This document shows positions 1 through 64,000 of a stretch of DNA of 64,000 bases, in pieces. The stretch's first letter is position 1. The number at the start of each line of letters is the position of its first letter. The stretch lies in the NCBI GenBank assembly GCA_001662655.1, contig KV460217.1; one strand, written 5' to 3'. The translations under genes and the position numbers were made by a program. The notes beneath the pieces are model-generated. The model saw nothing but the letters and a program-made list of their open reading frames with translations, was not told the origin of the DNA and did not search any database. Source of the stretch: Pseudogymnoascus verrucosus. Taxonomy: Eukaryota.

Positions 1-432
1 CTTGTGGTGCGGCTCTGGGGAGCGGTCTTGGATGTCCTGGACCTTCTTTCCCTTGTGATGCGGTTCGGGAGAGCGGTCTTGAATGTCCTGGACCTTCTTT
101 CCCTTGTGATGAGGCTCGGGAGAGCGGTCTTCAAGCTCCTCTTCGTGGCGCGCGGCTGCCTGGACCTTCTTTCCCTTATGATGCGGTTCTGGGGAGCGGT
201 CTTGGACTGCCTGGACCTTCTTTCCCTTGTGGTGAGGCTCGGGAGAGCGGTCTTGAATGTCCTGGGCCTTCTTTCCCTTGTGATGCGGNNNNNNNNNNNN
301 NNNNNNNNNNNNNNNNNNNNNNNNNNNNNNNNNNNNNNNNNNNNNNNNNNNNNNNNNNNNNNCCTTCTTTCCCTTGTGATGCGGTTCTGGGGAGCGGTCT
401 TGAACTGCTTGGACCTTCTTTCCCTTGTGGTG
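1..432 (-). repeat. Coding tandem repeat, 51-bp unit (one 72-bp variant), containing a 74-N assembly gap
   Basis: CCTTCTTTCCCTT(G/A)TG recurs at ~51-nt period on the + strand. True copy number is unknown because of the gap and the window edge. Confidence 0.95.
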
Positions 433-665
433 ACGGGCCTCCAAGTCAATGGCTACACCGCGAGCGATAACTGCACCACCGCCCTGTGAGGTGTTAGTAT
501 TTGTTGGATGAATGAGATCAAGTTCAGTTGTAGATGAGGTAATTATGAAGGATGAAGAAGACATACAATATGACGTCTAGCTAAGCCACCGCTAGCCACA
601 TCCTGTCCGTTGATGAGAGGGGCAAGCGCCAAAAGGCCAAATGCCAAAAGAGTCGAGGTATGCAT
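1..665 (-). CDS. Secreted Kex2-processed repeat protein (KEP), putative RiPP precursor; 3' end runs off the window
   Basis: ATG at 665. Exon 1 (665-567) reads MHTSTLLAFGLLALAPLINGQDVASGGLARRHI (signal peptide plus RR). Intron 566-484 is GTATGT...CTAAC...CAG. Exon 2 reads GGGAVIARGVAIDLEAR, then 17-aa repeats HHKGKK(V/A)Q(A/D)(V/I)QDRSPEP, one with the longer spacer VQAAARHEEELEDR. Eight cores are visible (last one partial), interrupted by an N gap at 289-362. Confidence 0.9.
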
Positions 666-2116
666 GCTGAATAAATATAAACGAAAGGCTGGCCAGCAGC
701 TTTGAGCGAATAAGAAGAGAGGGAATGGAAGGGAAAAGAGAAGCGAAAAGAACAAAGCACAAGCGTCAAGCTGATGGAGAGAGAATTCAGATGAGAGCAC
801 GAATACAAGAGCAGATTTGAGTCCTTTATGACTGATTCCTTGGCCCGCGTAGACTGGATGTCGATGGGATGAGAAAACACGCTAAGTCTTCGCGAGGCGC
901 TCTGGGGAAGGGGAAAGGGAGGTTGTTCGGGCCATGGTGGAGTTCATGATAGTCTCAGAAGGTGTTCCAAGACCGTTGCACCAGGTGCCCAAGCGTTGAT
1001 GTCTCTTTTTGAGAGTATTCCCAGTATGTTCGTAGTGGCATTCTCGCATGGGTGAGAAATGCCGCAGTCTATCATGGCCCGTCGAGGAAAGATGAGCCGC
1101 AAGCGACAGACCTCGCCTGTGTTCCAGGCCAGGGCGGGTTTCGCCATGGCGTCGAGAAAGCTTGAGTGCCCTATAAACAGCAGTCACGAGTGATACAGAT
1201 CGGCCAGACCCCACTGTCTGCCGCCAGCCGTTGGTGGGATAAATGATGGGGTTCAAACAAACCAGCGCCGAGACAACTCACGTCGGCGCGTGGTGCCAAG
1301 ATGCCATCCAATGGAGGGTTATCTGCTGGCTGGAGCAGTTTCACAGTCCGGGGAAAGTTTCCTGGGTCTGTATAGAGAATAGCCCGTATGGGAGAGCCCG
1401 TATGTGGAGCGATGTACGAAGTAGCATGGTTTGGTGATGTTTGAGCCCGCCGCGCATAGACTTTCCCCACCCTTCTCCACCAAGTGTCGGAGTTCCAGTA
1501 TCAGAATCCCAGGGCGACGGTGATTGAGGCTCTCATAAAGATAAAAAATGGATTTTTGTGCTCTTTGTGCTTTTTATGAATTTTGCGATTGGTGGAAAAG
1601 GAGACATTGCAAGGTAGCTGCGACGCGACTTGTCTTGGTATCGCTTAATTGTGAGGAAAGGGGATCTCCAAGGGACTTGGCTCCGAAACATCTGGAGCAT
1701 CATCGACCACAACGTCAAACCAAGAGGCGACGCAATTGCTCAAATAGGACAATTTCCGATGCGCAAAGGGCCTATTGTGGTTCTACTCTGATATATTTCG
1801 GTATATTCTGGTATATACTCCAACGAACATGATACAGGACTCCCCTGGAACTCGGTGCCGTCGTAACCGCCATCCCTGATGCTTGAGCAGTGGCATCACG
1901 AGGTAGGCGTCTGAGTGCTAAGCATCTGCGATTTCCCTTGACCATGTCCAATCCCCCCCGCTGGAAATATTGAATATCTCCAAGTTGACCTTCATTTCTA
2001 TTGTTGTTTGCTGTTGTGTTTCCTTTATCTCCTTCTTTTCCCTTCCACCAAAGCCTTCAACCAGAGCTGGATCTCTACGTGCTTGTTCTATTCTTGTATA
2101 ATTTTGTTTTTTGAAT

Positions 2117-3139
2117 ATGGCTTCTGTGAAATACTACCCGGTGTCGCTGGCCGACGAGAAGGAATCATACTCGCCCTCAGACACATCCTCCACGACGCTC
2201 CTTCCCTATGAAGAGGACCACAGAATCACCGAGAGGCGGCAGCTCAAGTCGGTACTACAGTCGAAATGGCTCCTGTTAGCACACGCGCTATTTTTCTTAT
2301 TCTCGCTGGCTATCTTCTTACGGGGCATCACCTTCTCAGCGCCAACAACTGCGAAGTTTGTGAAGGAGTTCTCGGAATACTGTGAGTGCTGGTCAACTTT
2401 GTTCCCCTCGAGTGCCCAGGCTGACTGTATATAGCTCCCGCGGCCCATGTGATAGAATATGAAGACATGAAGTTCAACGGCAGCATGTATGCTACATCGG
2501 CGTACATTGGCAAAGGTCCTGAAGTCGACGCTGCTTGGGATGTCATCTCATATAATGGTACGCTTCATATAGGACATGTCCATTCCTCGATAAATCCCAT
2601 CACTACACCCTTACTTCATCGATATTTTAGCCTTCATTCTAGAAAGCATCAAACTGACACTCGCACAGTCGGCGACCAGATGATTTCCGCCGCCGAGCTC
2701 CGCAAAATCGATAAGCCAACCACCGTCCTCAAAGTGACAGACCCCCGTACAGGCATCGAAGGCTACCGCGTCGGCCTCGAAGTCTTCCACCAGCTTCACT
2801 GCCTTAATCTGCTCCGCCAGGCTACCCATATTGACTACTATGGGGGCCGCGGTGGAGACTTTTCGGAAGGGATTGATGGCCTACGGATGCATCTCGGTTT
2901 GTGCTCCCTACAATACCAACGTCGGAAATTGGTAGCTGCTTGCTAACGTGCCGACAGATCACTGCCTAGAGATGTTGCGCATGAACCTAATGTGCCAGAG
3001 CGATGTTGGGCTCATTACGTTCGAGATGACGGATGAGGGCATCTGGCCCGACTTCAGCACGTGGCACACGTGTCGTAAGTTCGATAATGTGCTTGACTGG
3101 GCGATGGAGAATGCGGTAGCGAACGATGACCCGATGTAA
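2117..3139 (+). CDS. DUF3328 / UstYa-like oxidase
   Basis: Four exons (2117-2381, 2435-2557, 2669-2896, 2958-3139) with canonical GT-AG introns. N-terminal TM helix (WLLLAHALFFLFSLAIFL), G..PEVDAAW motif, FHQLHCLNLLR, and after splicing HLDHCLEMLRMNLMCQSD (two HxxHC motifs), then PDFSTWHTCRKFD. Confidence 0.95.
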
Positions 3140-3293: not shown

Positions 3294-4392
3294 TCAATCC
3301 ACAAACACGTCGCCCCTCTCAATCGTCTCAAAGGCCTTCATGGTATGCTCCCACACCTTATCCCCCAATCCCTTCAGTCCCCATTCTCGATAAAACTTCT
3401 CGCTCCCTTTACATACCTCTCCATTCCAATTCACCGCATACACCCTACCGCCAATCAGTCCATTCACCCCCGTCGCCACCTCTTCCTCCACCACTGGCAC
3501 CATAGTGCCCGCCTCCCCATCTCCACCCGCTCTCCCTCGAAACATCGCCGACGTAGACATAAACAAGTTCCTCTCCCCCGACTCCTTCAGATCCAGCAGA
3601 AACGGTGTCAGCAGCGGAAGCACCACCCAGTGAAACAGCCACTTAACGAATGGCGAGAACCTGGCGTGCTCGAACTCCGGCGTCTTCACAAGTCCGGGGT
3701 GAACGTGTAGGCAGCTCAACGATGGGTTCTCTGCGGCGATATGCAAAAAGGAGAAGGTGATCATGAAGATGGCGTGGGAAAGGTGGTTTAGCACGCTGTG
3801 ATGGGCGCGGAGGGAGAGGTCGTCGGGGTAGACGCCTCGCTCGTGGTTTGGTGCTAAGACGGAGACGGCACGGGGGGAGGGGGCGCGCTGGAGGAGGGGG
3901 AGGAGGAGAGTGAGGAGGCGGATGCGGGAGTAGTAGCGAAGAACCATGAGAGCATCTAGGCCTTCGGGTGTTTCTAGAGAGGGGTTAATATGGATTCTGG
4001 AGATGGGTGGGGTCGAAGGCGGCTTCGCACTTACCTCTCCTGCCTTCAAAAGTGATATATCCATGGGTCATAAATAGCAAATCGAGCTTCCCACCCTCCT
4101 CCCTCTTTAGTATCTCCGCACACACTGTATCCACATTCTTCAATAGCGACAAGTCCGCGCTGAGGAAGACGAATGTCCCTTCCGGACAAATCTCGAGGCA
4201 GTCCGCGATGATAGCCGCGGCGCGCGGTTCGCTGCGGCCAATAATGTAGACACGAGGCGCGGTGCTGTTACCGGCAAGGGCGCGAAGGGCAGATTCACCG
4301 AGGCCGCTGGTGGCGCCGGCGAAGACGGCGGTGATGGGGGGGAGAGTGCGGAGGTGGGCGTTTGAGGCGCGGACGGTGGAGAGGGGGATCAT
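3294..4392 (-). CDS. Short-chain dehydrogenase/reductase (atypical fungal SDR)
   Basis: Starts MIPLSTVRASN with Rossmann motif AVFAGATSGLG. Intron 4034-3974 joins ...FEGRR to ETPEGLDALMVLRYYSR. HVHPGLVKT motif present. Confidence 0.88.
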
Positions 4393-5792
4393 AGTAGCAA
4401 TACGAGGTTCAGTGATTATGGAAGGAATGTCACCTCGATAATTATAGATGATTAGAAATATTTTATTGTTGATTGTGAGTGGTCGTGTATGTCGATGCGC
4501 GCGCGTTGCGAGAAAAGTAAGGGTGGCGACTATCACTTGAGGCGGGGTAGTCAACAGTGACGCGGATAAATATCGTGATAGGTCAAGACACTGATACTTG
4601 AATACTCTCATACTGTTGCATGCATATCCATAGGATATCAACGTTGTAAATTGTAAAATTTTAGTTATAATATATTTATGTGCATTTTCCAAGTTGAAAA
4701 TTAATTATTTAGTAAACGTCTATAAGTAAATTAAAATATATTCTTTAAACTTTTATTTAATATCCGTTCAGTAAATCTTCCTTTATTTAGTGCAGCAGTA
4801 GATCAATTATAATACAAACTTCATCTACTTATTATAAGAACATAGGCATATTTCACAATTTATTACAAATGAAGCCTTCCTTAGATGGTGGTAACTGTAG
4901 CAACATTCTTTGCTTGGCAATATATTTGTTTCTTGCCTTATATATTAGGAAATATCACGTGATTTAGGTGACGGCTATCGTAACTATCGACTATCGCCAA
5001 TTCGAGGCCAGCGCAACAACCATTTAAAGTTAAACATCGACACTCAAACCCGCGATCCTTCGTTCCTGACCATAACGCAAATCTAATAGACTATGGGTTC
5101 ATTATAACCACTCTTTTATGCTGGTCAGAAAATCTTACCTAGGCGCTATCTGAATTACGCTAAAGCTGTCTATTTGCGTGGTTCGTAGCGGCGCTGGTGG
5201 ATTGATCCAGGGAAACTTTAATCAGGTGAGTTTGATATGAAGCTTAGCAACGTTTTATATACCATAGCCCGAGCTCAGATTTTCTTCATCAAATGAGCAA
5301 CTAGTGTTGCCCATTTATTTATGCATATTCACCTCATTTGTTACCGATCTACGATCTACGCTACATTCTTCTTATTTGTACAGCTTCCACGTTTTGTTGG
5401 CTTCACAGTAGAGTCATATTGAACTCAAGGCTCTTCTGCAATAAATCTGCTTTCAAACATCTTCTGTGGCTAGATCACCTGTCAAGTGGCTGCGGATTGT
5501 TGGCATGTTGCTTCATCTCATACAACACCTACAGCTAAAGAACACTGTTGGCTGCGATTCTCAAGGTCTATTTCTTGCTGGTCTATTTTCGTTAGGAGAT
5601 AAAATTACTGTACTAACTCGTCCATAGACTACCCTAAACTCACTGTATCTGACACGGTGCTCTCATAATTACTTGCCTTCATCCTCGGCCCCTTTCGTCG
5701 GTGTTGCAGATGAATTGTGAGCTACAACCTGTCGCGTCGGGAATTCCTCTGGTTCGGGTATCCATCCAAGAACCGGCAAATTCTAGCCGAAT

Positions 5793-8320
5793 ATGGTGAT
5801 GATGGATTCTGCACATGGCAACGATGTTGTCATGGCTGAGAGCGTTGTGGAAAATGGCGGGAATGGATTTATCGACCCGAGGGATATGCACATCATCGAG
5901 CATGGCCTCACCGAGAATGGCGACGGCATTGGGCAACTAAATTTTGAAGAAGAAGAAGAAGATGCTGCAGATATGTCAGATATTTCTGAACATTCAGTGG
6001 ATTCGCAGGCCTTAACGTTTACCGGGCGAAAGAAACACCTGCCCACTGGATGTTGCTACGACGACCGGATGAAGTTACATGCAAATGCTGATTTCTCCGT
6101 TGATCCGCCGCACCCCGAGGATCCAAGGAGGATACAATCAATAATGAGGGCATTCAAGGAAGCAAAACTCGTTTATACTGGCCCGGAAGAGAACCTTGCA
6201 GGAATCTTGAAGAATTCGCCAACCGCGTATATGTATCGAATTGCAGCGAGGGGCGCCACGCCAGCAGAGATCTGCACGGTTCATACGCCACTGCATTTCA
6301 AGTGGGTTTCTGACCTCTCTGGCATGTCATCGGATGAGCTGCGCGCTATGAGCAAGGCCCTGGACACAGGGCGAAAGTCGCTATATGTTGGGAATTACAC
6401 TTATGAAGCCGCACTGATTGCCGCTGGTGGTGCTATTGAGACCTGCAAGAACGTTGTGGCGGGCACGGTCAAGAACGCAATTGCTGTTATTCGACCTCCT
6501 GGACATCACGCCGAGAGTGATGAGGCTTTGGGATTCTGTATGTTTAACAACGTTCCCGTTGCGGCACGTGTTTGCCAGGCCGACTTCCCTGATACCTGTC
6601 GAAAAGTCCTGATTCTTGATTGGGACGTACACCACGGCAACGGAATTCAGAATATATTCTACGACGACCCGAATGTTCTATATATATCACTCCACGTGTA
6701 CAAAGACGGAACTTTCTACCCCGGCTTCCCTGATGACCCATCAGTGCCTGATGGAGGGCTAGGAAACGTTGGTGCTGGCCCCGGCTCTGGGAGAAATGTG
6801 AACATCCCGTGGCACGCGCAGGGCATGGGTGACGGTGAGTACCTCGGCGCCTTCCAGAAAATCGTTATGCCCATCGCCCAGGAATTTAACCCAGACCTTG
6901 TCATCGTCGCTGCTGGCTTTGACGCCGCGGACGGCGATGAGCTGGGCAGCTGCTTTGTTTCGCCTGCGTGTTACGCGCACATGACCCATATGTTGATGTC
7001 GCTTGCTGGCGGAAAAGTAGCCGTCTGTCTCGAGGGCGGGTACAATCTCAAAGCGATCTCGCGGTCTGCTTTGGCCGTGGCGAAAACATTGATGGGAGAG
7101 CCGCCGGACCGCATTGAGTTGCCGCCGATCAACAAGGAGGCGCTGAAGATCCTGCATCGAGTTAAGGAAGCCCATGCGCCGTTCTGGGAGTGCATGCAGC
7201 CGGGGAAGATTAATGTGAAAGAAGAGGAAGACGCGGATGGGGCGAGGTTTAACGCTGTTATCCGCGCATATCAATATAAGGTCCTCCGAGAGAAGTACAA
7301 GATGGTCGATATGTACGTTACGAGGGATAAACTGGCCAAGGGGCTGGAGTACCAGGTGCTGATCACGAGCGAGTTTCCGGCGGCAAAGAAGATTCTTCTT
7401 ATCGTTCACGATCCGTAAGTTGTGTATGTCAAGATTCCGAAAGCATGCTGATGATTGTCACAGACCTGAACTCCTGGCTATTTCTGATCCCATCGACTAC
7501 TCCGTTGAGCCACATAATTCGCGGATGGTAAATTCTACTGCTTCTACTGGAGTCTGTGTCCGTGGAACTAACTTGCCATAGAACGACGGTGTAATGGCCT
7601 ACATTGACTGGGCCTACAACAACGGCTACGCGGTCATTGACGTCAATATGCCCATGCACATCGAAGACACAGACGTTTGTCTCCCACACCAGCTAGTCCC
7701 ATCCATAAAGCTGACATAAGTAGGCGAACATTGAAGAAGAAGGATTTATCGAGCGCCCAACCGAGATGGTGCATCGCGAGCGCATGAAGGAGCTCATGTG
7801 CTACCTATGGGATAACTATCTTGAACTCCACGATTCGGAGCACGTCGTGCTTATGGGTGTTGGAGATTCCTACAGTGCTGTTAGAGAACTGCTTGTGAAT
7901 AGAGGTAAGGTTTTTTTTTTGTTTCTGTTATTTGGTTTTGGTTTCGCGGGCCCTGGGATACTTTCAAACGCTCCCCTGGATCATCCCTCCTCCCCTCCAA
8001 ATGTCCACACACTAACTCTACTCCCAGAGTCCAAGCACAAAGTTCCCCTCGTCGTATCCTTTGTCTCTGGCTCCCTGCGACCCGTTCGCAGCGAGACAGA
8101 CGCCAGTCTTGCGCACTGGTACAAGAAGCATTCCCGCGTGTATGTAGCAGCCGATCACCTGTGCTGGACGGATCCGGAGTTGGAGCGGAAAGTGACGAAG
8201 AGCCGGTTCGGGCGCGTCGTGAAGAGCGGAGAAGAGGGGCTGAACAATATGCTCCGGGCGCATTTGCCAGAGGTAGTGGGGTTGTTGGGGAGTGTGGGCG
8301 AGGAGGGTGAAGAGGAATAG
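5793..8320 (+). CDS. HDA1: Class II histone deacetylase (Hda1/Clr3/HdaA) with C-terminal Arb2-like region
   Basis: HPEDPRRI, RPPGHHA, GFCMFNNV, LDWDVHHGNG, GFDAADGD and LEGGYNL motifs. Several small 3' exons after a donor at 7415. Start codon uncertain. Confidence 0.95.
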
Positions 8321-21411: not shown

Positions 21412-24400
21412 TCAAAGGCGTGGTTCATGATCTGCAGTCTTGAGAAGTAACTCCGCTATATTCCAGTACTTTTTCTCGATGGCGATAGTGAGCGGAGACT
21501 GATTAGTACAATTTCGTGCGCCAATGTCAATGTCGGCCTTGCTAGTTTCAAGCAGTACTCTTACCACCTGCTCATTTCCCCATTTTGCAGCAATGAAGAA
21601 CGCTGTATTAGCCATGACATCCATTGCGTTAGCTTTGATCTTACTATGCTGAAGTAGCATCGCCGCTGGCCCATGCTGAGATTTTGCCGCATATGAGAGC
21701 GCCGTTCTATTGAACGTGTCTTTTGCGTTAACTTCAATCTTACTATGCTTAAGGAGTAGTGCCACTGCTCCCTCACGTCCAAGCCTTGCAGCACACATGA
21801 GCGCTGTTAGGCCCCAATTTTTTTCTGTGTCGCCTTCAGCCTTTCTCGGTTTTGCTTTGATTTTGGCGTTGACGTTAACCTTGCTATGCTGGATCTGGAT
21901 CTGAGAGGGAATTGGAGCATCTCCAATTCCCTCTCAGATCTAAGTTCTACAGCATATATAAGCGTAGGAAATCCGATGGCGTCTCTCCTGTTGACTTGAA
22001 TATCACTGCGTCGAAGTGACAGCTCCACTACAGCCTCGTGTTGCCCTCCGATGGCTAACATAAGCAGCGTCCAATCGTCAAAATCTTGCATATTAACGTC
22101 AATTTCGTTCGAAGTTCTCTGGAACAGGTTTTTAATTGTTCTGTCTGCGGTAGACTGTCTCTCGTTGCTATTAGGATCATTTTGGGGCTTTAGAATCAAC
22201 TGGACAAGCTTAAGAAGTCCGTTCTGTGATGCTATGTGCAAGAGAGTCATGTGTGTCTCTCTATATTGAACCTCCTTGAAGGAAGTGTTTAGGAGCTGCC
22301 CGTAGAGTTGTAGTAGCTCTCCTTGATTGGGATTTATATTTTCTACTATTTTTGCATGGTATGTCCAGTGAAAAGTTGCGTAGCAAAAGAAGGGATGGTC
22401 ATCATCAAAGGCAATGGTGTTTGAAACCGGTCTATGGTTTGTCGTAGTGTCTTGTAGTGCCCGTACAGTATAGTATCTTGCAAGTATTTCCTTTGAAAAC
22501 AAATAATGTATGCAAGACTTTAGTAGCTGTAGATGTACACGGCCAACGAAATCAAGGGCTGAAGGCCCAGAAGTTGGAGCGCCGTCGTCGAGGTACCGCA
22601 GCCCCCTTGAGACTAGGTAGTCGTACACTGATTGGTGTCTTAGATGCACAGTGTGTTCTTCGTCGTGCTTGTTGATTACTACCAAGTTGCACGAAAGCCT
22701 TTTTATCATATTTACCATTTTGTGATGATTTCTTCTGCACTCCACTGACTTCTGCCATACTAGACCAGATGGGTCAAATGCCATTGCATCGTATAGCTCG
22801 TTCACATGTAGAGGTCGCCGGGAAAAACAAATCCAGCGTAGAAGTCGCAGCGATTGTGATCGATAGATTATATCCATTATCTGAAAACTCTTATCATAAA
22901 GGTCGTCGAGTCCTTCAGGGAGATCTCCCAGAAATTCAAGAATGTGTTTTAATGGTGCAAAGCCTTTGATTAAATCTTTAGCCTTCTTAACGACAATAAC
23001 AGCCCATTGAAAAATGCCAGAGGCCATTTCCACAGTCCACTTTATAAGTTCTCGAGCCTCATAGTGCTTTCCATTGATTCTAGCGATTTTGTTCTGCACA
23101 TAAGTCCATATGTCTTGTCGATTTTTGTTCCCAATCGATATTTTGAGACCACCGTTCGCTAAGAAAGGGTAATCTCGGCGGGAGATACAGACATTCAAGC
23201 TAATTCCAAATCTGTCTTGTGATGTCAAGCTTTCGAAGTACTCTGCTAACTCCATAGGTACCTCACCGCCGTTAGGTACGTTGCCGCCGAACTCATCAAG
23301 TGCATCTATGTAAACACGAAGTATGTATTCCTCTGGATATCTCTTTGCGATGTGTAACATAAAATCCTCTAGCATTTCTTTCAGGTCACGTTCATGCCAC
23401 TCCCATTTTATTCCAGGTTCGCCTTGTAACTCGCATCTTTTGTCGAACTCCGAAGTTAAATCAGACGGCCATGTTGGAATCTGTCGTAGGATCTGGTGCA
23501 GCAGAGAGCGAAACAACCCAATGCGGGTTTTCTGAAGAGGGGCACCAGCACTGTAGCAGAAGAAAGAAACCAGAATGATCTTTTTCTGGGCTCGCTGGGG
23601 TGGTCCTTGCTTGTCGACCTTAGTTTCTGTCTGCAAAGTGTCTTGCTCGTATATGTATTTCATAAGCGTCGATTTTCCTGACCCAGGGATCCCAATAATC
23701 CATAGCAGACTTTGGCTTTGCGCAAGCCAGGATTTGTAGTCAGGTTCGTCACATAGCCACTCGCATGTGTCTTCCACAGCTTCTGATATGTCCTTTTTGT
23801 GGTGCTCCATCTCGGGAAAATACAAGGATTGTAGAAGAGCTATAGAGTAAAATCAATATTGAACTGGATATAAAATGCGATTGATTAAGACAAGACATAC
23901 TAATAGAGTTCTGAAAACCGGAAAAGTCTATATAGCATACATTTGTTAAACCAAAACATCGTTCTCATTAAGGTGCGTCCTTACTATGATAATTGAATGC
24001 CCCTGCCCCATTATTATTTAGCTGCGGGCCCTTTCCTGTATTACTGTTCGTGTAAGTGCCTTCTCCAATATTATTATTCGTGACCCTCCTCGCTATGTTA
24101 TTTCCACTTCCCGAGCTGTGCTGAATGATAGATCCACTATCTTCAGGGATCGAAGGAGGCATGTCGAGCATTTCTTGAATCGCCTCTTCAAGTTTCTTAA
24201 TTTCATCCCCAGTCGCCGTTCCCATTAATTTGTCGCACGTCACCAGCTTAATGTGCTCCATAATCTCTCCCATTAATTCCTCTACTCGCTTCCCCTTGCC
24301 TACTGCAGCGACGGCCTTTTTATACCGTTCCAACCGGTTGGCATCTGCATCGGGTAGAACCGCTTTGAATATTTTGTTTAGCGCTTCGACCTTCTCGTGG

Positions 24401-24645
24401 CAGGCCCTGATATTGTTCTCGGCTTCATTCGTTTGCTCGTCATCGAGCTTCGTTGCCTGTCCTTTCTTCTCTGCATTTCGAAGGATCGTAAGCACCAGTG
24501 GAAATTTCGCAGCAATGCTACGAAACTCTTTGGGTAGGCCTTTGGCGTCTTTGTAGGCTGAGTGGAGAGATTTCGTGGATTTGACGATTTCGATTGTTCC
24601 TGTGATGAGGCTAATGATGACCCCAACCTCACCAACGATAGACAT
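21412..24645 (-). CDS. Fungal NLR: SesA (HeLo-like) N-terminal domain, G/N-rich amyloid-like motif, NACHT, ankyrin repeats; frameshifted in the ankyrin region
   Basis: ATG 24645 (MSIVGEVGVIISLITGTI...AYKDAKGLPKEF). Introns 23984-23928 and 23900-23840 around a 27-nt exon join it in frame to LLQSLYFPEM...TCEWL. Walker A GIPGSGKST, Walker B VYIDALDE, ankyrin repeats (TLLHIASQNG, TALSYAA, SPLTIA). Frame break at ~21890-21910. Confidence 0.85.
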
Positions 24646-25602
24646 GACGAGAACAGCTGAAATACAACTGTCAGTACTTTTAACAACTGTGACAACAACG
24701 GATTTTCCCACCTAGCGTTTTTCGACACTATTTCTCTAAGCAGTTGATATCTAACCTCAACTTACAGAAGGGTCGAAGTCGTTATTGTATGTGGATTCTC
24801 TTCTCCTCACGGCACGCCCGCCTAGCCTCGTTTGTGACGACCACCATGTCGGCTTGCATCTTCACCGACTGGACGTCTATAAGTGGCGCAACTGAGCAGG
24901 ACTTGACTGGCTAGCCTTGTTAACGTAAACATACATTGTACTAAACTCCGCGGAAGTGTTCAACATGCCAATCGGGTGTTCAGTATCTGAAGGGGGGCGC
25001 TGGTTGTTCCATCCACCAAACCTAATGATGTTTCCATATAAGTAACCGGATCTCATCTTCGCCAATTAGGAGAGGTCGATAGCGAGACTCCTAGGAATGA
25101 GCCGTCGCAAAATTGGACAGCACTCCTGCCACGAAACTATGAGTACCTGCTCAAGACGAGTGTACGAAGTCACCATCCAGGCTGTTGTTGAGCTGTAACT
25201 GCGGACACCTTGCCAAGGGCAACCCAACTATTTCGGCTTTCTTTGACTGTGGCCGTATATGATAATTGCTCCCATATGTAGTCTAAGTAAACCAGTATTA
25301 GTGGGAGGCTCGGCAGTCGAGATGAGTTGCAGTAGTCAGGGCATATAATAGATGAGGCAGTAGGATGCGAGTGATGGAAACGAAGATCCAAGAGGCGAGA
25401 GCGGGCGCCAACTGACCGTCGTCCTCGAATGGCAGTTTGCGCAATAGCCTCAATCACGTTTGTATCAGAGCCAACGACAGGACAAATATCTTCTCTTATT
25501 ACAGATAAACAGCACACTTGACTTATCTCTTCACTGGCAGTTGTATATTCTTGTATGCATTGATTAACAGCCATGATATCGTGCCCTAGTATACACCCCA
25601 GC

Positions 25603-27534
25603 CTAAGAACTACAGCTACACTGCATCCCCCTCCCCTCCCTTGGCACATCTCCCACCCACCTCTCCTCCTCCTCCCGGTCTCCACCCCACGTCTCCTCAA
25701 AGGGGTTCAGCGCCATCTTCATCACGCGCCCCAGTACCTCCCTCTCCCCTTCCTTCTCCACGCGCCGAATAACCTCGTCCAGGATCCACGATCGCGGGAT
25801 GAAATTCGGGTTCACAGCCCTCATAGCCGCTTGCCTCTCCTCCTCCGCCTCCGCTGTAACTTCCTGTGCGGCCCAGTCCTCTACAACTCTCGCACGCCAC
25901 TTATCCAACCACACGCCAACACGCTCCCTCGCCACAGCCTCATCCCCAACCACCCCCTCCTTATGGAAGAACAACCCCGCCTTCTCCTTCCTACCCTCCT
26001 CGGTCTCAATCTCTTTAATGTACACCCCACTCAGCCGGCGGAAGAACTGGTTAAAATCCAGCTTCAGCGCCTCCATCGTATCTAGTAGCTCGCTAAACAG
26101 GGTTTCGAAGTCATCTGGCTTGTGAACCTTGAGTCCCAGGCGCGCAGTCATGAGGCGCTTGTACTCTTCCAGGAATACCGCCTTGTACTCCTCACCCGTA
26201 CGTGTGATGAGCCCCTCGGCGCGCGAGACGAGCTCGTCGGCGTCTTCCTGCCTGACACCTTTTTCGACGAATTCAGCAGCGTCGACGCCAGCGCCAGCGC
26301 CGATTAGCTCGCCGAGGGTTTCGCCCAGGCGCACGAGGTTCCACCAGATGATAGTGGGCTGGTTGCGGTAGGAGTAGCGTAGCATGCCGTCGTCGTGGTT
26401 TGGGGTGTAGTTAGGGTCGAAGGTGTCGAGGAAGGCAAAGGGCCCAAAGTCGAGGGAGAGGCCCATGAGGGATGTGTTGTCAGTGTTGAGGACGCCGTTG
26501 GTGAAGGCGTAAGCTTGCCACGCTGCAACGGTCTTGGCGTTGCGGCGGGTTATTTCGCGGTAGAGTCTGGCGTATCGGTTTTCCTCCAACCCAGACGGAC
26601 CGTCGATTGTGTCTTTTTCAATGGGGGTAGATGGGGGCTCAGCAGTATCTTGCTGGTCGTCTGGGAGGCGAGCGGGAAGGGAGCTCCACCCGCTGAAGAC
26701 ATGCTCGGCGGTGTAGTCGGCGAGCTTGCGGATGAGGTCCCTGTCACCACGGGCGCGGAGGAGATCAAATGTACCGATGCGTAGCCACGATTGTGCAAAC
26801 CGTGTTACGATTGCTCCCGGTTCCGTCCTTTCGCGGCGGACCTTCGAGTGTGGGAGGAGAGTGAGGGACAGGGCACGGGTGGTTGGAATGCGAAGGGCAT
26901 TGAGTGCTTCGGAGACGACGAATTCGCGGATCGATGAGCGCAGGACTGCCTTGCCATCTGCGAAGCGCGAGTATGGCGTCATCCCAGCTCCCTTCAGTTG
27001 TAACTCGTATCTAGTCTTCGTATCAGGGTTTGTCGTCTCGAATAGGGAGATGGCGCGGCCGTCGCCGAGTTGACCGGCCCAGGACCCGAATTGCCAACCT
27101 CCGTAGCATTGTGCCCAGGGGTATCCCCCTTCTTGCTTGTCTTCGTTCCACCCAAGTAGCCTATTACCAGCAACGAGCTGGCGGAACTCTTCTGTCTCTG
27201 CTTCCTCTGGCTTTATCCCCAGGTCTCTTAGTGCCGCGGTGCTAACTCCGAGTAGTTCAGGGTCCACCGCCTCCTCAGGGCGCACCCAAGTAAACAGGGC
27301 ACCTTTGACCATCCGAGGGCCTAGATCATCTCTCGGTGTCTTATGTGATATCGCTGGGCTTGGAAACGCAGAGTCGGCAGGCAGATTGGCCGTAAAGTTC
27401 CATGACTTCCGGAGATCCTTCAGGGCTACGCCTCGGGAGGGGCCACGGGAGGAGGCGCTGCTGGTGATATGGGACGACATCTGCGCGAAACGTGCGCAGG
27501 TGTTCACAGGTCGTATCAATTGTCGGAATAGCAT
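25603..27534 (-). CDS. FMP40: Protein adenylyltransferase SelO / Fmp40 (mitochondrial)
   Basis: YGGWQFGSWAGQLGDGRA, QLKGAGMTPYSRFADGKAVLRSSIRE, GVLNTDN, DFGPF and C-terminal QCSCSS. Arg-rich presequence from M at 27534. Confidence 0.96.
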   Translation of the reverse strand: MLFRQLIRPVNTCARFAQMSSHITSSASSRGPSRGVALKDLRKSWNFTANLPADSAFPSPAISHKTPRDDLGPRMVKGALFTWVRPEEAVDPELLGVSTAALRDLGIKPEEAETEEFRQLVAGNRLLGWNEDKQEGGYPWAQCYGGWQFGSWAGQLGDGRAISLFETTNPDTKTRYELQLKGAGMTPYSRFADGKAVLRSSIREFVVSEALNALRIPTTRALSLTLLPHSKVRRERTEPGAIVTRFAQSWLRIGTFDLLRARGDRDLIRKLADYTAEHVFSGWSSLPARLPDDQQDTAEPPSTPIEKDTIDGPSGLEENRYARLYREITRRNAKTVAAWQAYAFTNGVLNTDNTSLMGLSLDFGPFAFLDTFDPNYTPNHDDGMLRYSYRNQPTIIWWNLVRLGETLGELIGAGAGVDAAEFVEKGVRQEDADELVSRAEGLITRTGEEYKAVFLEEYKRLMTARLGLKVHKPDDFETLFSELLDTMEALKLDFNQFFRRLSGVYIKEIETEEGRKEKAGLFFHKEGVVGDEAVARERVGVWLDKWRARVVEDWAAQEVTAEAEEERQAAMRAVNPNFIPRSWILDEVIRRVEKEGEREVLGRVMKMALNPFEETWGGDREEEERWVGDVPREGRGMQCSCSS

Positions 27535-28018
27535 GCCATATATACCAGTAATATATATGTAAGAAAGCGCTGAATAATGTATGGAGATGAAATAAAGTGC
27601 TGAGGGCGGCGGGAGTGACGTTATGCCGTAGCCGGATAACAAGCCTCAAACGTGGGATTTGTGGCGATAACCGATAAGGAAACAGCTCAAATATAGATCT
27701 CGATTTCTTCAAGTATAATTTTACACAATGCTGGATTCCAGGCTCATTCTAGAGGGGCAAAGTAAATTTCTTCATAGTTCATTCATATCTACCGCTAATT
27801 AATGTAAATTGGACCCTGAAGTCTACGGCAAACCAGTTCCGGTAGGCTCCACCTGTCTACCGACAGTAGTGCAACAGAGCTCGTCATACCCCGCCATTGC
27901 CCCTCAAATATATGTCTACACTTCCCATTTTTAACGCATTCTGTGTGCAATTCCTCGGTATTAAAGCCGAAGCTGCGATAAAGCTACAACAATAATTCTA
28001 TCTTAACAATTTGTCAAC

Positions 28019-60370: not shown

Positions 60371-62827
60371 TCAGGCAGGACATCCGCTCGCAGGGTAGTT
60401 GCAGCTACTCGCTACTCTGCCTCCAGTAATCGCAACATTGTTGAAAATGAAGTTCGAGCACGACCCATTGCCGCAAAGAATGTAGTAGTCCTTCGCTGTA
60501 TCAGTGGCTGTTCCAGTCACATTCTGGAATAACACATTCTGAATTAGGACTCCTGAAGAAGGGTTTCCTGTCGCACCACCGTTGAGGTAATCTTGCTGGA
60601 CGTCAATGCCGAAGGTGGAAGTGTCACTGATGGCGATGTTGGAGTACGTGACGTTGGCGATGTAGCCAGTTGTGTTATAGTTGGTTTTGATGCGGCAGCC
60701 ATTCTGGGAGTCAATGACGGAGGAATTAGTGAACTATAGTATGTGTTAGAGATATCTGTCATGAATATATCACATTCTTATTTTTCTACTTACCAGAATA
60801 TTCGTCACGTTATTATTGGACTTTCCTCCCACTGAGCCAATGGATAATCCGTGTCCACCATGGCACTCTAGATTCGACACTGTTATGTTATTACCGCTTG
60901 TTATAGCCACACAGTCATCCTGGTTGTAAACAACACTTCTTTGGACAACGATATTGCTCGATGAGCTAACGTCAAAGCCGTCCGAGTTGTGTGCCGCTGC
61001 CAGCCTGTTGCTGCGACTGTTAGGAGCATCACCCGCCGTGTTATTCAGGACCAAGTCCTGGAAAACGACATCGGAGCTGCCAGAAATGGTAAATAGATGG
61101 ACGGGCCAGTTCTGGATATGCAGATTTTTAATCACGGACTTTCCGGTCACTTTGTTGACGACGATGAAGTGATCTGGTTTCGGGACTCCTCCGTTTGAAC
61201 CAAGGCCGTCCCAGTAAGCCTGGCCGTTGCCGTCAATGATTGCGCCAGGGTTGGCGGTGATACTGATGCTCTGGCCGCCAATGGTGATAGGGTTGAAGGT
61301 GGAAGAATTGGTGAAGCCAAAGGTGGTTAGTCCATCGAATGTCACTGTTGTTCCTGTTTTGAGCCCAGAGAGGTTGATTGCGGAGCCATTTGGAGCGGCA
61401 ATATTGGACAAGACAATATTGGTACAAGATGCAACGGCGGCAGAGATCTGAGAGTAGTCCGTACATACGCATGGTGTGCCTGATGAAGCGGATGTAGTGA
61501 GGGTGTTAGCTGAGCTAGTAATCAAAGTCTCGCTTGTAGAGGCAGCAGACGCAGAAGACGGAGCAATGAGAGTGGTGGTTGGAATAGACGTATGAGTAGA
61601 TGTAGTCGAGGCAGTCGTGGTCGCCGTACAGCTCTTAGTGTTCTTAGTGTTTCCGGGAGCCTTGTGATCTTCAGGCGTACATCCTTCATCATGGAGATCA
61701 CTTGGGTCAAGATAAGTGGTATCAACCCACCACTCGTCCTGGAAGTTCTCACCGAGAATAGACCGAATCGGGATGGATGCATTCAGCTGCTCGCTGAAAG
61801 TCGCTCTGGGTCCTTCTTCCCGCACAGATCCAGGACCATAGTTCCCATACTCTCCAAATGTGACATTGCCAATATTGGGCGTACTTGTAGACCATTGTTT
61901 CCAACCAGCGGGGTCAATAATGTTTCCCAAGTAACTCCCTTGGAAGACTACTCGGGCGAAGGATCCCCAAGGTCGACCAAGAGAGTTGGTTCCTGCGGGG
62001 ATGGTGTCGTTAATTCCAGTAATGTTAGAGCGACTGATAATGTACCATGAAGGGTTGGTGGCACTGCTGCGGCCTGAGGCAGTGATGGAACCAGTTGCGA
62101 TCGTGCGGATGTCAATGTTCTCGAACCATGCAAGTGCAGTTTGTCCGAAAATGAAGTCTACAGCACCGACGATAAGACTTTTGGCATAGAGCTGGGAACC
62201 TGTACAGATACTTCGTCAACATACGTTCGAATAATCATTCTCCCGCGACTTACCTGTCTCCGCAAGAAGAGTGTCCTGATATCCAATCAGCTGACAGCCA
62301 TAGTAGCCCTGGCCTGTGGTCTCTGCAGAGACGGCCAGGTTCTGGCCATTCTTTGGAATATGACCAAAAGTGTTGACAACGTTCAAGTTGTATACTTTGG
62401 TGTTTGGATTCCATTGACGAAGAGTCGCCGTAAGGTCATCATTCGTAGTGTTGATCAGCGCAAGATTGTATGTGATAGTAGCAGTGTTATGCTCATACCC
62501 CTTAGAGTTGCAGGTATAGCCTTGAACAGTAAGGTTAGACTTGAGACGAGGAATGTAGACTTGTTCCACATATGTCCCAGGGAAGATAAACAGATTTTGC
62601 GGTCGAGTAGTAGTGTGATTGAGAGCATTCACGCCCTCCTGAATAGTAGAGAAAGATCCTAGGTGTGGATGAACGCTGTTGTCCACTATAACCGCGCCTG
62701 CTTCGGGGGAGACCCTGGCCCATGGGCCAGAGCAGGTGTGCGAGGGTACATGCGAGACGGGGTAACCTGGAAGAGCCTGCGAAATAGCAAAGCAAGTTGT
62801 GAGCGCAAGATGGACATAACCAAACAT
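60371..62827 (-). CDS. Bifunctional secreted pectinase: CE8 pectin methylesterase fused to GH28 endo-polygalacturonase (~780 aa)
   Basis: Exons 62827-62254, 62199-60794 and 60733-60371 translate without stops. PME motifs GQNLA, GYQDTL, DFIFG, LGRPW; S/T linker; GH28 motifs HNSDG, QDD, GHG, RIK. Confidence 0.93.
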
Positions 62828-64000
62828 GATGCCTCAATGCCCCTTGAACAGAATTATAGATGGTAGTCGACTGCTCTGATATATGGTTGAAGAGGGGAAC
62901 CACCGAATTTATATTGTTCGGACGAAAGTGCGCCCATACCATGTAGTTATATTTTTTTCGAAGGGGACTCCACGGAAACTGGGACTCAGTTGTGGTGTTT
63001 CCCCAGCTCCAGCTCCAGCTTCATATCCGGGGTACCTACCCCGCCCAGTACTAGGTAGTAGGTTCCATCAGTTACGTGCTACGTACGGACATATTGTCCC
63101 TGATCTCGTTTTAGCGTCGACTTCCCAATGGGAGCTTAATTTCTCTGTACCTGTCAATCGAAGTTAGTGCGATTTTGCATAGAATCTGGAGAATCTGGAG
63201 AAAGAAAGTTTCCGCCAATTATGAAGCTTGGACCATTTTTATTAGGGAAATAAGCTCTTTCAAGCATTTACTTGTGCAGAATGTAGGGGTGATATACGCA
63301 CCCCCTGTTGTTATATAACACCGGCCACGCCTAATTAGTAATTTCGCAATATTTAATTAGAGGTTCTGCCGATACCTAGCTTTGCTAACTATTTGTACTG
63401 TAAAATAAGTAACTGAACGGCAGACATTTCGTGCGACCAATGTTCAATTCCCACCAATACAATAATAGTGCTCACGTACCGCCGTTGCTCTAGACATTGC
63501 AGTACTACTAGGCCACGCGTCCTAGTGAGGACTATTTGCAATTTCCCATCTAGCTTCTGTCTAACCACATGACCTGGCACGGTACAAGTATTTTCTACAG
63601 TGCAGTAACTAGGCGGTCTATGCATCCAGCCTAAGAATTGCTTCTAGCCATGGCGGGAATTTTGTGTAGTAGTTGTCAGAAGTTAATGTGTATTACTAGA
63701 ACGTTGTTATCTGAATACCCACCAAGGTAATTCATGAGTACGGTATGGCGTCGGATCAACCACCACCAAGGGTCTCGTGCTCTAGTTGAAATGCGTTTAC
63801 CAACCTAAAGGGCAAAACAAGCATTTAACGGGGTATTATCTGCTTCCCCTTATCCTGCTTCTCTCTCTCTTTCTTGGTAAGTGGTTTTGCGGATGGCTCT
63901 GGGGCCACGGTTCCGGGTGTTCCTGGAGCTGCAGAACAGCTGCAAGCAACCGTACCATCCGTAAGGCGCCCTGGACGCTTGGCCAGGCGTTTTTCCTCGA

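Follow-up and report, generated by a model that had tools for sequence, protein, structure and literature searches.

The first 3,139 nucleotides of a 64,000-nucleotide stretch of Pseudogymnoascus verrucosus DNA (GenBank assembly GCA_001662655.1, contig KV460217.1; the whole stretch is called the window here) carry two divergently oriented genes. The minus-strand gene encodes a protein with a signal peptide and tandem His-His repeats, and the plus-strand gene encodes a UstYa/DUF3328 protein. They are a real pair and probably serve a dikaritin-like peptide made by ribosomes and modified after translation (RiPP), with a tyrosine-free core. Both genes are intact, with the repeat gene open to base 1 and an assembly gap inside its array. 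We favour, at somewhat better than an even chance, a two-gene module: a secreted, di-histidine Kex2-processed repeat protein (KEP) and a dedicated, membrane-anchored UstYa/DUF3328 oxidase, with a single 1.45-kb promoter driving both genes in opposite directions. Reading the pair as a RiPP system is plausible, and this is better supported now than it was from the sequence alone at first reading.

The repeat gene has two exons on the minus strand (665..567 and 483..1) and is open beyond base 1. Exon 1 (567..665) begins with an ATG at position 665, and its 33 codons encode a signal peptide of hydrophobic character and then a short pro-segment, whose last residues are Arg-Arg-His-Ile. It is followed by an intron of 83 nt (484..566, minus strand), whose donor is GTATGT, whose branch site is ACTAAC and whose acceptor is CAG. 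Exon 2 (1..483), in phase with exon 1, encodes an array of 17-residue units and runs off the window. The exon junction and the N-terminus are identical in a database protein, P0002. Together with the start codon and the intron signals, this match bears out the spliced minus-strand gene with a signal peptide that the initial annotation had proposed. The signal peptide was judged by inspection of the hydrophobic N-terminus, which is conserved in relatives, among them the database proteins P0003 and P0146 and the gene of one metagenome locus (L046). The two-exon layout, with a signal exon, an intron and a repeat exon, recurs in related loci.

The C-terminal part of the 17-residue unit reads Arg-Ser-Pro-Glu-Pro-His-His-Lys-Gly-Lys-Lys. 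Its array has a period of 51 nt, with 86-91% matches (Tandem Repeats Finder). Eight HHK sites are found in exon 2, with the first His codons at positions 432, 381, 285, 234, 183, 111, 60 and 9. The count of at least eight HHKGKK copies made at first reading therefore holds for the HHK sites, but only seven copies are complete, and the last is cut by the window edge at base 1. Copy number is uncertain due to the assembly gap, a run of 74 N (289..362) inside the array, where further copies may be hidden. Neither Tyr, Phe nor Trp occurs in the unit, as already remarked at first reading. Pfam searches with the repeat protein gave only sub-threshold matches, due to its composition bias. The C-terminus is taken from the database model P0002 alone; this model seems to leave out a stretch of repeats, and errors may be present in its final residues. 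The L046 repeat protein consists of a signal peptide and eight repeats, and ends directly after the last unit. No second copy of the repeat gene or of the DUF3328 gene was found in the window.

The DUF3328 gene has four exons on the plus strand and encodes 265 amino acids, with zero internal stops. Exon 1 (2117..2381) encodes a predicted cytosolic N-terminus and a single predicted transmembrane helix at residues ~53-71, where the best 19-residue hydropathy window (from residue 53) has a mean of 2.08. Exon 2 (2435..2557) matches positions 52-90 of the UstYa profile with 17.3 bits. Exon 3 (2669..2896; 56.4 bits) holds the first HxxHC motif (HQLHC, residue 170) and the start of the second (HLDHC, residue 204), which is completed in exon 4 (2958..3139; 71.1 bits) ahead of the stop codon. 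Exons 3 and 4 each lie above the Pfam UstYa (PF11807) cutoff of 25 bits by themselves, and the full-length orthologue P0004 scored 191.5 bits against the same profile. Two HxxHC motifs are a feature of UstYa in the ustiloxin literature. The gene is thus as intact as it had first appeared, and its family assignment has passed the profile check. Among 51 sequences, H170, H173, C174 and H204 were invariant, and H207 and C208 nearly so.

The closest relatives of the DUF3328 protein are Pseudogymnoascus proteins. Exon 1 is 87.5% identical to residues 1-88 of P0004, and exon 4 is 95% identical to the same protein. The structure model of a DUF3328 orthologue has a long helix at residues 35-73 and a pLDDT of 79.3. 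It had no Foldseek match in the PDB at E <= 0.001, and its best VIA-align Z was 4.8. No solved structure related to it thus turned up in the libraries searched, from which novelty of the fold does not follow. The best scores in the protein atlas were 0.78-0.81, under the lead level. Complex prediction for the lumenal part of the DUF3328 protein with two repeats gave no verdict, at a score of 0.00.

Conservation of the pair was followed in metagenome contigs. These were scanned with an alignment of ten DUF3328 orthologues, which gave 79 loci, and the DUF3328 match was set as the plus strand in each. A six-frame search revealed minus-strand genes with repeated His-His 1.1-2.5 kb upstream of DUF3328 in many loci. 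When a strict pattern was required, R(X[P/A])0-4HH[KRQT][GEP] at least twice per open reading frame (ORF), 27 ORFs were found in 25 of the 79 loci. All of them lay upstream of the DUF3328 match, at a distance of 1.1-2.4 kb and on the opposite strand, and no such ORF occurred elsewhere in the 583,585 bp searched in six frames. The linkage count was limited to loci whose sequence reaches 2 kb or more upstream of the predicted start of DUF3328. A divergent His-His repeat gene was present in 23 of these 31 loci, and in 18 of 23 non-redundant groups once loci with identical DUF3328 C-termini were merged. The two genes also have consecutive locus tags in Plenodomus lindquistii (NX059_002924 and NX059_002925). 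Conserved linkage of the two genes, which the initial annotation had named as a check, is therefore strong. A second repeat subtype, HHTEAQIAAKK, was found, and the loci carrying it form a single clade in the DUF3328 tree.

The genes around the pair differ from locus to locus. They include Noc2, VPS28 and MMM1; a WD40 protein and a fatty-acid hydroxylase; a CBS gene and ribosomal S2; and PIG-P with WSC. One clade (L015, L039/40 and partly L035) has a Fungal_trans regulator and an ABC transporter of the ABC_membrane type beside the pair (L015:135-4099; L040:11114-18789). These are homologous between the loci, with regulators 46-68% and transporters 69% identical, and L015 and L040 differ by an inversion of the whole pair as a unit. 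Across divergent ascomycetes the pair is thus kept as a unit while the surrounding genes change. Since the neighbours vary, the conserved module consists of the two genes and their common promoter alone. The further tailoring genes that had been looked for around the pair did not appear: none was conserved across the loci compared.

Several variations on the pair were seen. In L028, a second UstYa-family ORF (6724-7227, minus strand) lies just downstream of the paired DUF3328 gene, and M28 peptidase ORFs were found near the pair in L028 and L038. The Pseudogymnoascus relatives P0003 and P0146 share the signal/pro region and have 2-3 repeats, followed by a duplicated domain of ~70 residues that is rich in Cys, Thr and Gly and belongs to no known family. 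One His-His site of P0003 has decayed to Arg-Lys.

The sequence context of the repeats was analysed for 187 His-His sites, a pool to which the window contributed along with 19 non-redundant loci and 13 relatives from the database. Arg followed by 0-3 X-Pro/X-Ala dipeptides preceded 184 of them. The spacers came in 17 variants, including EP, DP, SP, AP, EA, SPEP, EPEP, DPEA and EAVPEP; two further His-His sites were located at sequence edges. The residues after His-His were KG (120 sites), TE (29), TP (9), RG (9) and QG (9). The HHKG core proposed at first reading is therefore the commonest form in the pool but a local one, replaced by TE, TP, RG or QG versions in other lineages. What is conserved is thus Arg-(X-Pro/Ala)n-His-His rather than HHKG.

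X-Ala and X-Pro dipeptides after a kexin site are the signature of the dipeptidyl aminopeptidase Ste13 (PMC6339444). The even-length spacers after a basic residue carry this signature, so the mature peptides are predicted to start with His-His. The pattern resembles a Kex2-type cut with subsequent trimming of the Ste13 type. In the window, each of the seven complete HHKG units is followed by KK, and KR stands at this place in L066 and L076; other lineages have no dibasic site after the core. This KK or KR could be a second cleavage site, which would release a tetrapeptide. Dothideomycete-like members (L015, L029, L030 and L039; P0152, P0153, P0160, P0165 and P0167) have a conserved acidic block with Ala-His-Trp-Ala-Asp-Leu-His-Thr-Arg before many of their His-His sites. 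It is absent from the units of the window, and could be a leader-like recognition sequence.

The start codons of the two genes are separated by 1,451 bp (666..2116), in agreement with the divergent intergenic region of ~1.45 kb given in the initial annotation. This shared promoter region contains four matches to GCCARG, which we take to be the PacC site, at 839-844 (minus), 1128-1133 (plus), 1295-1300 (plus) and 1676-1681 (minus). The core intergenic regions of 19 non-redundant pairs, 23.2 kb in total, were compared (window, L015, L016, L020, L022, L026, L029, L030, L039, L041, L043, L046, L052, L055, L057, L064, L066, L068 and L076). Their top enriched hexamers were GCCAAG and TGAAAC. GCCARG occurred 70 times (3.0 per kb), a ~2.7-fold enrichment, compared with 1.2 per kb in the rest of the loci and 1.12 per kb in 52 ORF-free segments. 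In 200 resamplings, the number of sites was 28.3 ± 5.0, with a maximum of 47. TGAAAC/GTTTCA was present in all 19 promoters, with 40 sites versus 11.4 expected from the rest of the loci, and the longer CTGAAAC occurred 15 times versus 1.6 expected. TGAAAC resembles the core of the Ste12 pheromone-response element, and in some loci it stands directly beside a GCCAAG site.

The pair was compared with known peptide systems. A 2020 survey by Umemura listed 7,878 KEPs (PMC7329392). Two of its types, G-3 (#6) and G-8 (#15), have di-histidine motifs accompanied by P, and a DUF3328 gene was found within 15 genes in 57 of 64 G-3 and 45 of 49 G-8 cases (PMC7329392 Table 2). Type G-8 lists Pseudogymnoascus and Parastagonospora, with KFY25998.1 given as type 15 in Table S2, and type G-3 lists Botrytis, Rutstroemia, Lachnellula and Rhynchosporium (PMC7329392). 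Genera of both types recur among the DUF3328 orthologues and repeat-protein matches found here. The window pair shares with G-3 and G-8 the HH repeats with Pro and a DUF3328 gene within 15 genes, and its identity with either type is based on these common features, not on alignment to type members; the survey's own rule is reciprocal BlastP at E < 1e-30 and >70% coverage to a type member (PMC7329392). Four accessions of relatives were not found in Table S2. The claim of a new, unrecognised system could thus not be upheld, as di-histidine types with DUF3328 were already in the survey (PMC7329392). The pair is a new member of a listed but uncharacterised computational class.

Open-access papers and bioRxiv contained no characterised His-His product and no fungal mention of HHKG, and the only source combining DUF3328 with di-histidine was the survey. 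That survey gives no processing rule, subtypes, promoter analysis or product for these types (PMC7329392).

The precursor and its DUF3328 partner have the dikaritin-like architecture recognised at first reading, as the gene models and the Pfam match confirm. Like the dikaritins (ustiloxin UstA with UstYa/UstYb, phomopsin, asperipin-2a), the pair combines a signal peptide, tandem core repeats, kexin-type processing (predicted here) and an adjacent UstYa-family protein with two HxxHC motifs. It resembles asperipin-2a in its minimal cluster with a single DUF3328 gene. Unlike in the dikaritins, the window's core is Tyr-free, so the Tyr-based ether cyclisation of ustiloxin, phomopsin and asperipin is excluded. 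The conserved site is a single Arg with X-Pro trimming, whereas dikaritins have KR, and genes for a tyrosinase, a methyltransferase or a reductase are not conserved beside the pair.

The epichloecyclins, encoded by gigA and the DUF3328 gene gigB, also have a multi-core precursor and are cyclised by one DUF3328 protein (PMC10540207). It has been proposed that the link involves the first core residue, so that the peptide N-terminus matters there as well; unlike the window pair, however, the link needs a conserved Tyr (PMC10540207). The epichloecyclin cluster further has a SET methyltransferase and its own kexin (PMC10540207), neither of which was seen at the window pair. Ascomycete alpha-pheromone precursors, processed by Kex2, Kex1 and Ste13, share the repeats after a basic site and the X-Ala/X-Pro dipeptides (PMC6339444). 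The window pair differs from them by its rarely basic P2 position (the residue before the cleavage Arg), the absence of a pheromone core motif and the adjacent DUF3328 gene.

Taken through the secretory pathway, the favoured two-gene module would work as follows. A kexin-type protease would cut the precursor after Arg, and a Ste13-type dipeptidyl aminopeptidase would remove the X-Pro dipeptides, so that the released peptides would start with His-His. Those of the window would begin with HHKG, followed by KK and an acidic spacer, and cleavage at KK would give the tetrapeptide HHKG. The lumenal UstYa domain would oxidatively modify the precursor at its His-His core, after full or partial processing. 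Precedent and the conserved linkage make this the most likely reading. DUF3328 genes stand beside KEP genes, and their proteins are required for cyclisation, in ustiloxin, phomopsin, asperipin-2a and epichloecyclins, and DUF3328 proteins elsewhere hydroxylate or chlorinate (PMC7329392, PMC10540207, PMC12048977).

More speculatively, the products would use their free amine and both imidazoles to bind Cu, Zn or Ni; a His-His N-terminus whose amine is free makes a plausible ligand of Cu(II), Ni(II) or Zn(II). PacC would switch the pair on under alkaline conditions, in which these metals are in short supply. For a peptide that binds metal, such induction would be biologically sensible, although this is conjecture. 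The boldest version sees a widespread system of the Leotiomycetes, Dothideomycetes and Sordariomycetes for oxidised, N-terminal His-His ribosomal metallophores (Cu, Zn, Ni), induced by PacC at alkaline pH. We regard it as speculative and, taken as a whole, unlikely.

A number of observations weigh against these proposals. The P2 residue was basic at only 12 of the 187 sites and was mostly Ala, Thr or Glu; the endoprotease site would therefore be an atypical one, unlike the KR/RR that is canonical for kexin. At a Kex2 site, a non-basic P2 may be offset by a hydrophobic P4 residue. The 187 sites are not independent, as many are copies inside one protein. The case for modification by the oxidase comes down to gene linkage and precedent, and the characterised DUF3328 RiPP cyclisations in the literature examined use Tyr, a residue that the window's core lacks.

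Linkage and regulation hold further points of this kind. The repeat gene was not found in the available sequence of five non-redundant DUF3328 groups of the same subfamily (L005/6, L018/19/61, L050, L060 and L067), four of which fall into one small clade of the DUF3328 tree. P0003 (VE00_08512) and the DUF3328 orthologue (VE00_11186) of Pseudogymnoascus sp. WSF 3629 are on separate contigs, and P0003 is listed in Table S2 of the survey as type 0, with DUF3328 not in the vicinity. P0003 may be a paralogue, with its different C-terminal domain, and so this strain would speak neither for nor against linkage of the window's gene. Motifs of Cu/Zn regulators were not enriched in the 19 promoters. The AfMac1 motif TGTGCTCA and the Zap1 palindrome were each found in 0 of 19, and the Mac1 CuRE occurred in 6 of 19, a single time in each. 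The SreA motif was present in 4 of 19.

The alternative that we take most seriously, though still an unlikely one, is that the precursor gives unmodified linear His-His peptides (signals, antimicrobials or metal binders) and that the DUF3328 gene shares only the promoter and has another substrate or role. Elsewhere, it is unmodified KEPs of the alpha-pheromone-like kind that bear the Ste13-type signature (PMC6339444), the aromatic residue for known DUF3328 chemistry is missing, and other tailoring genes are not conserved. A mere sharing of the promoter fits less well with a pair that holds as a unit through neighbourhood changes and an inversion, and with DUF3328 clades that track the repeat subtype. 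Pheromone-type KEPs, moreover, are almost never found with DUF3328 genes, with one nearby in only three cases in the survey (PMC7329392). It is less probable again that the protein stays uncut, as a disordered His/Lys-rich secreted or cell-wall protein that forms a metal-binding or adhesive coat, with the repeats as a fast-evolving linker. Such a role would suit the Cys/Thr-rich duplicated domain after only 2-3 repeats in P0003 and P0146, the Cys-containing units of P0145 and the wide variation in copy number. The Arg-(X-Pro/Ala)n-His-His arrangement at 184 of 187 sites with 17 spacer variants is hard to explain without proteolysis, however, and the L046 protein has nothing after its last unit.

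The strict co-inheritance of the two genes would also be expected if the His-His protein were a partner of the oxidase and not its substrate, acting as a metal donor or chaperone for the UstYa HxxHC sites, or as a decoy. Adjacent His pairs and an N-terminal His are known to coordinate metals. Zn(II) and Cu(II) are bound by human semenogelin peptides in which HHKG occurs (PMC10466376). We nevertheless consider this role quite improbable: no precedent was found in the literature examined, and multi-copy repeats with processing sites fit the precursor of a product better than a chaperone. Chance adjacency deserves hardly any weight. DUF3328 genes are numerous in fungi, so that the neighbour could be unrelated, and the right flank of the window holds housekeeping-type genes only. 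Against this stand the retention of the pair in 18 of 23 non-redundant loci and the 27 strict ORFs, which all have the same position and orientation and occur nowhere else; for practical purposes, they refute it.

Beyond the pair, the right flank of the window contains an SDR-like gene, a histone deacetylase, a GH2, an acetate-transporter-like, an NLR-like and a SelO gene, and other genes of housekeeping type. The spliced SDR-like gene (3294-4704, minus strand) is arranged tail-to-tail with the DUF3328 gene, and its adh_short match of 24.7 bits is just below the cutoff. It was rejected as a cluster member: it adjoins DUF3328 only in the nearest relative, L037 (89% identical), has a weak match in L050 and is absent from L046. 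The NLR-like gene (21412-24711, minus strand) combines SesA, an NPHP3_N-type NTPase and ankyrin repeats, and is followed by the SelO adenylyltransferase gene (25603-27645, minus strand). At 60770-62833 (minus strand), two ORFs with one reading direction carry pectinesterase and GH28 polygalacturonase domains, and possibly represent a fused pectin-degrading enzyme.

Compared with the Umemura survey, the present analysis adds a processing rule, two repeat subtypes that match DUF3328 clades, conservation of only two genes and enrichment of PacC-type sites. The processing rule predicts the exact N-terminus of the peptide, and the enrichment of PacC-type sites predicts the condition for induction. 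UstYa/DUF3328 reactions on ribosomal peptides in the literature examined use tyrosine, and the His-His pair would show what other reactions this fungus-specific oxidase family can carry out, as a clean and minimal two-gene case for Tyr-independent UstYa chemistry. If the metallophore reading were true, this would be the first such chemistry, acting on His, for example by an imidazole crosslink or by oxidation, and the products would correspond, in fungi, to the ribosomal copper-binding peptides of bacteria. If they bind metal, they would represent a new molecule for metal acquisition or defence in many plant-associated and soil fungi.

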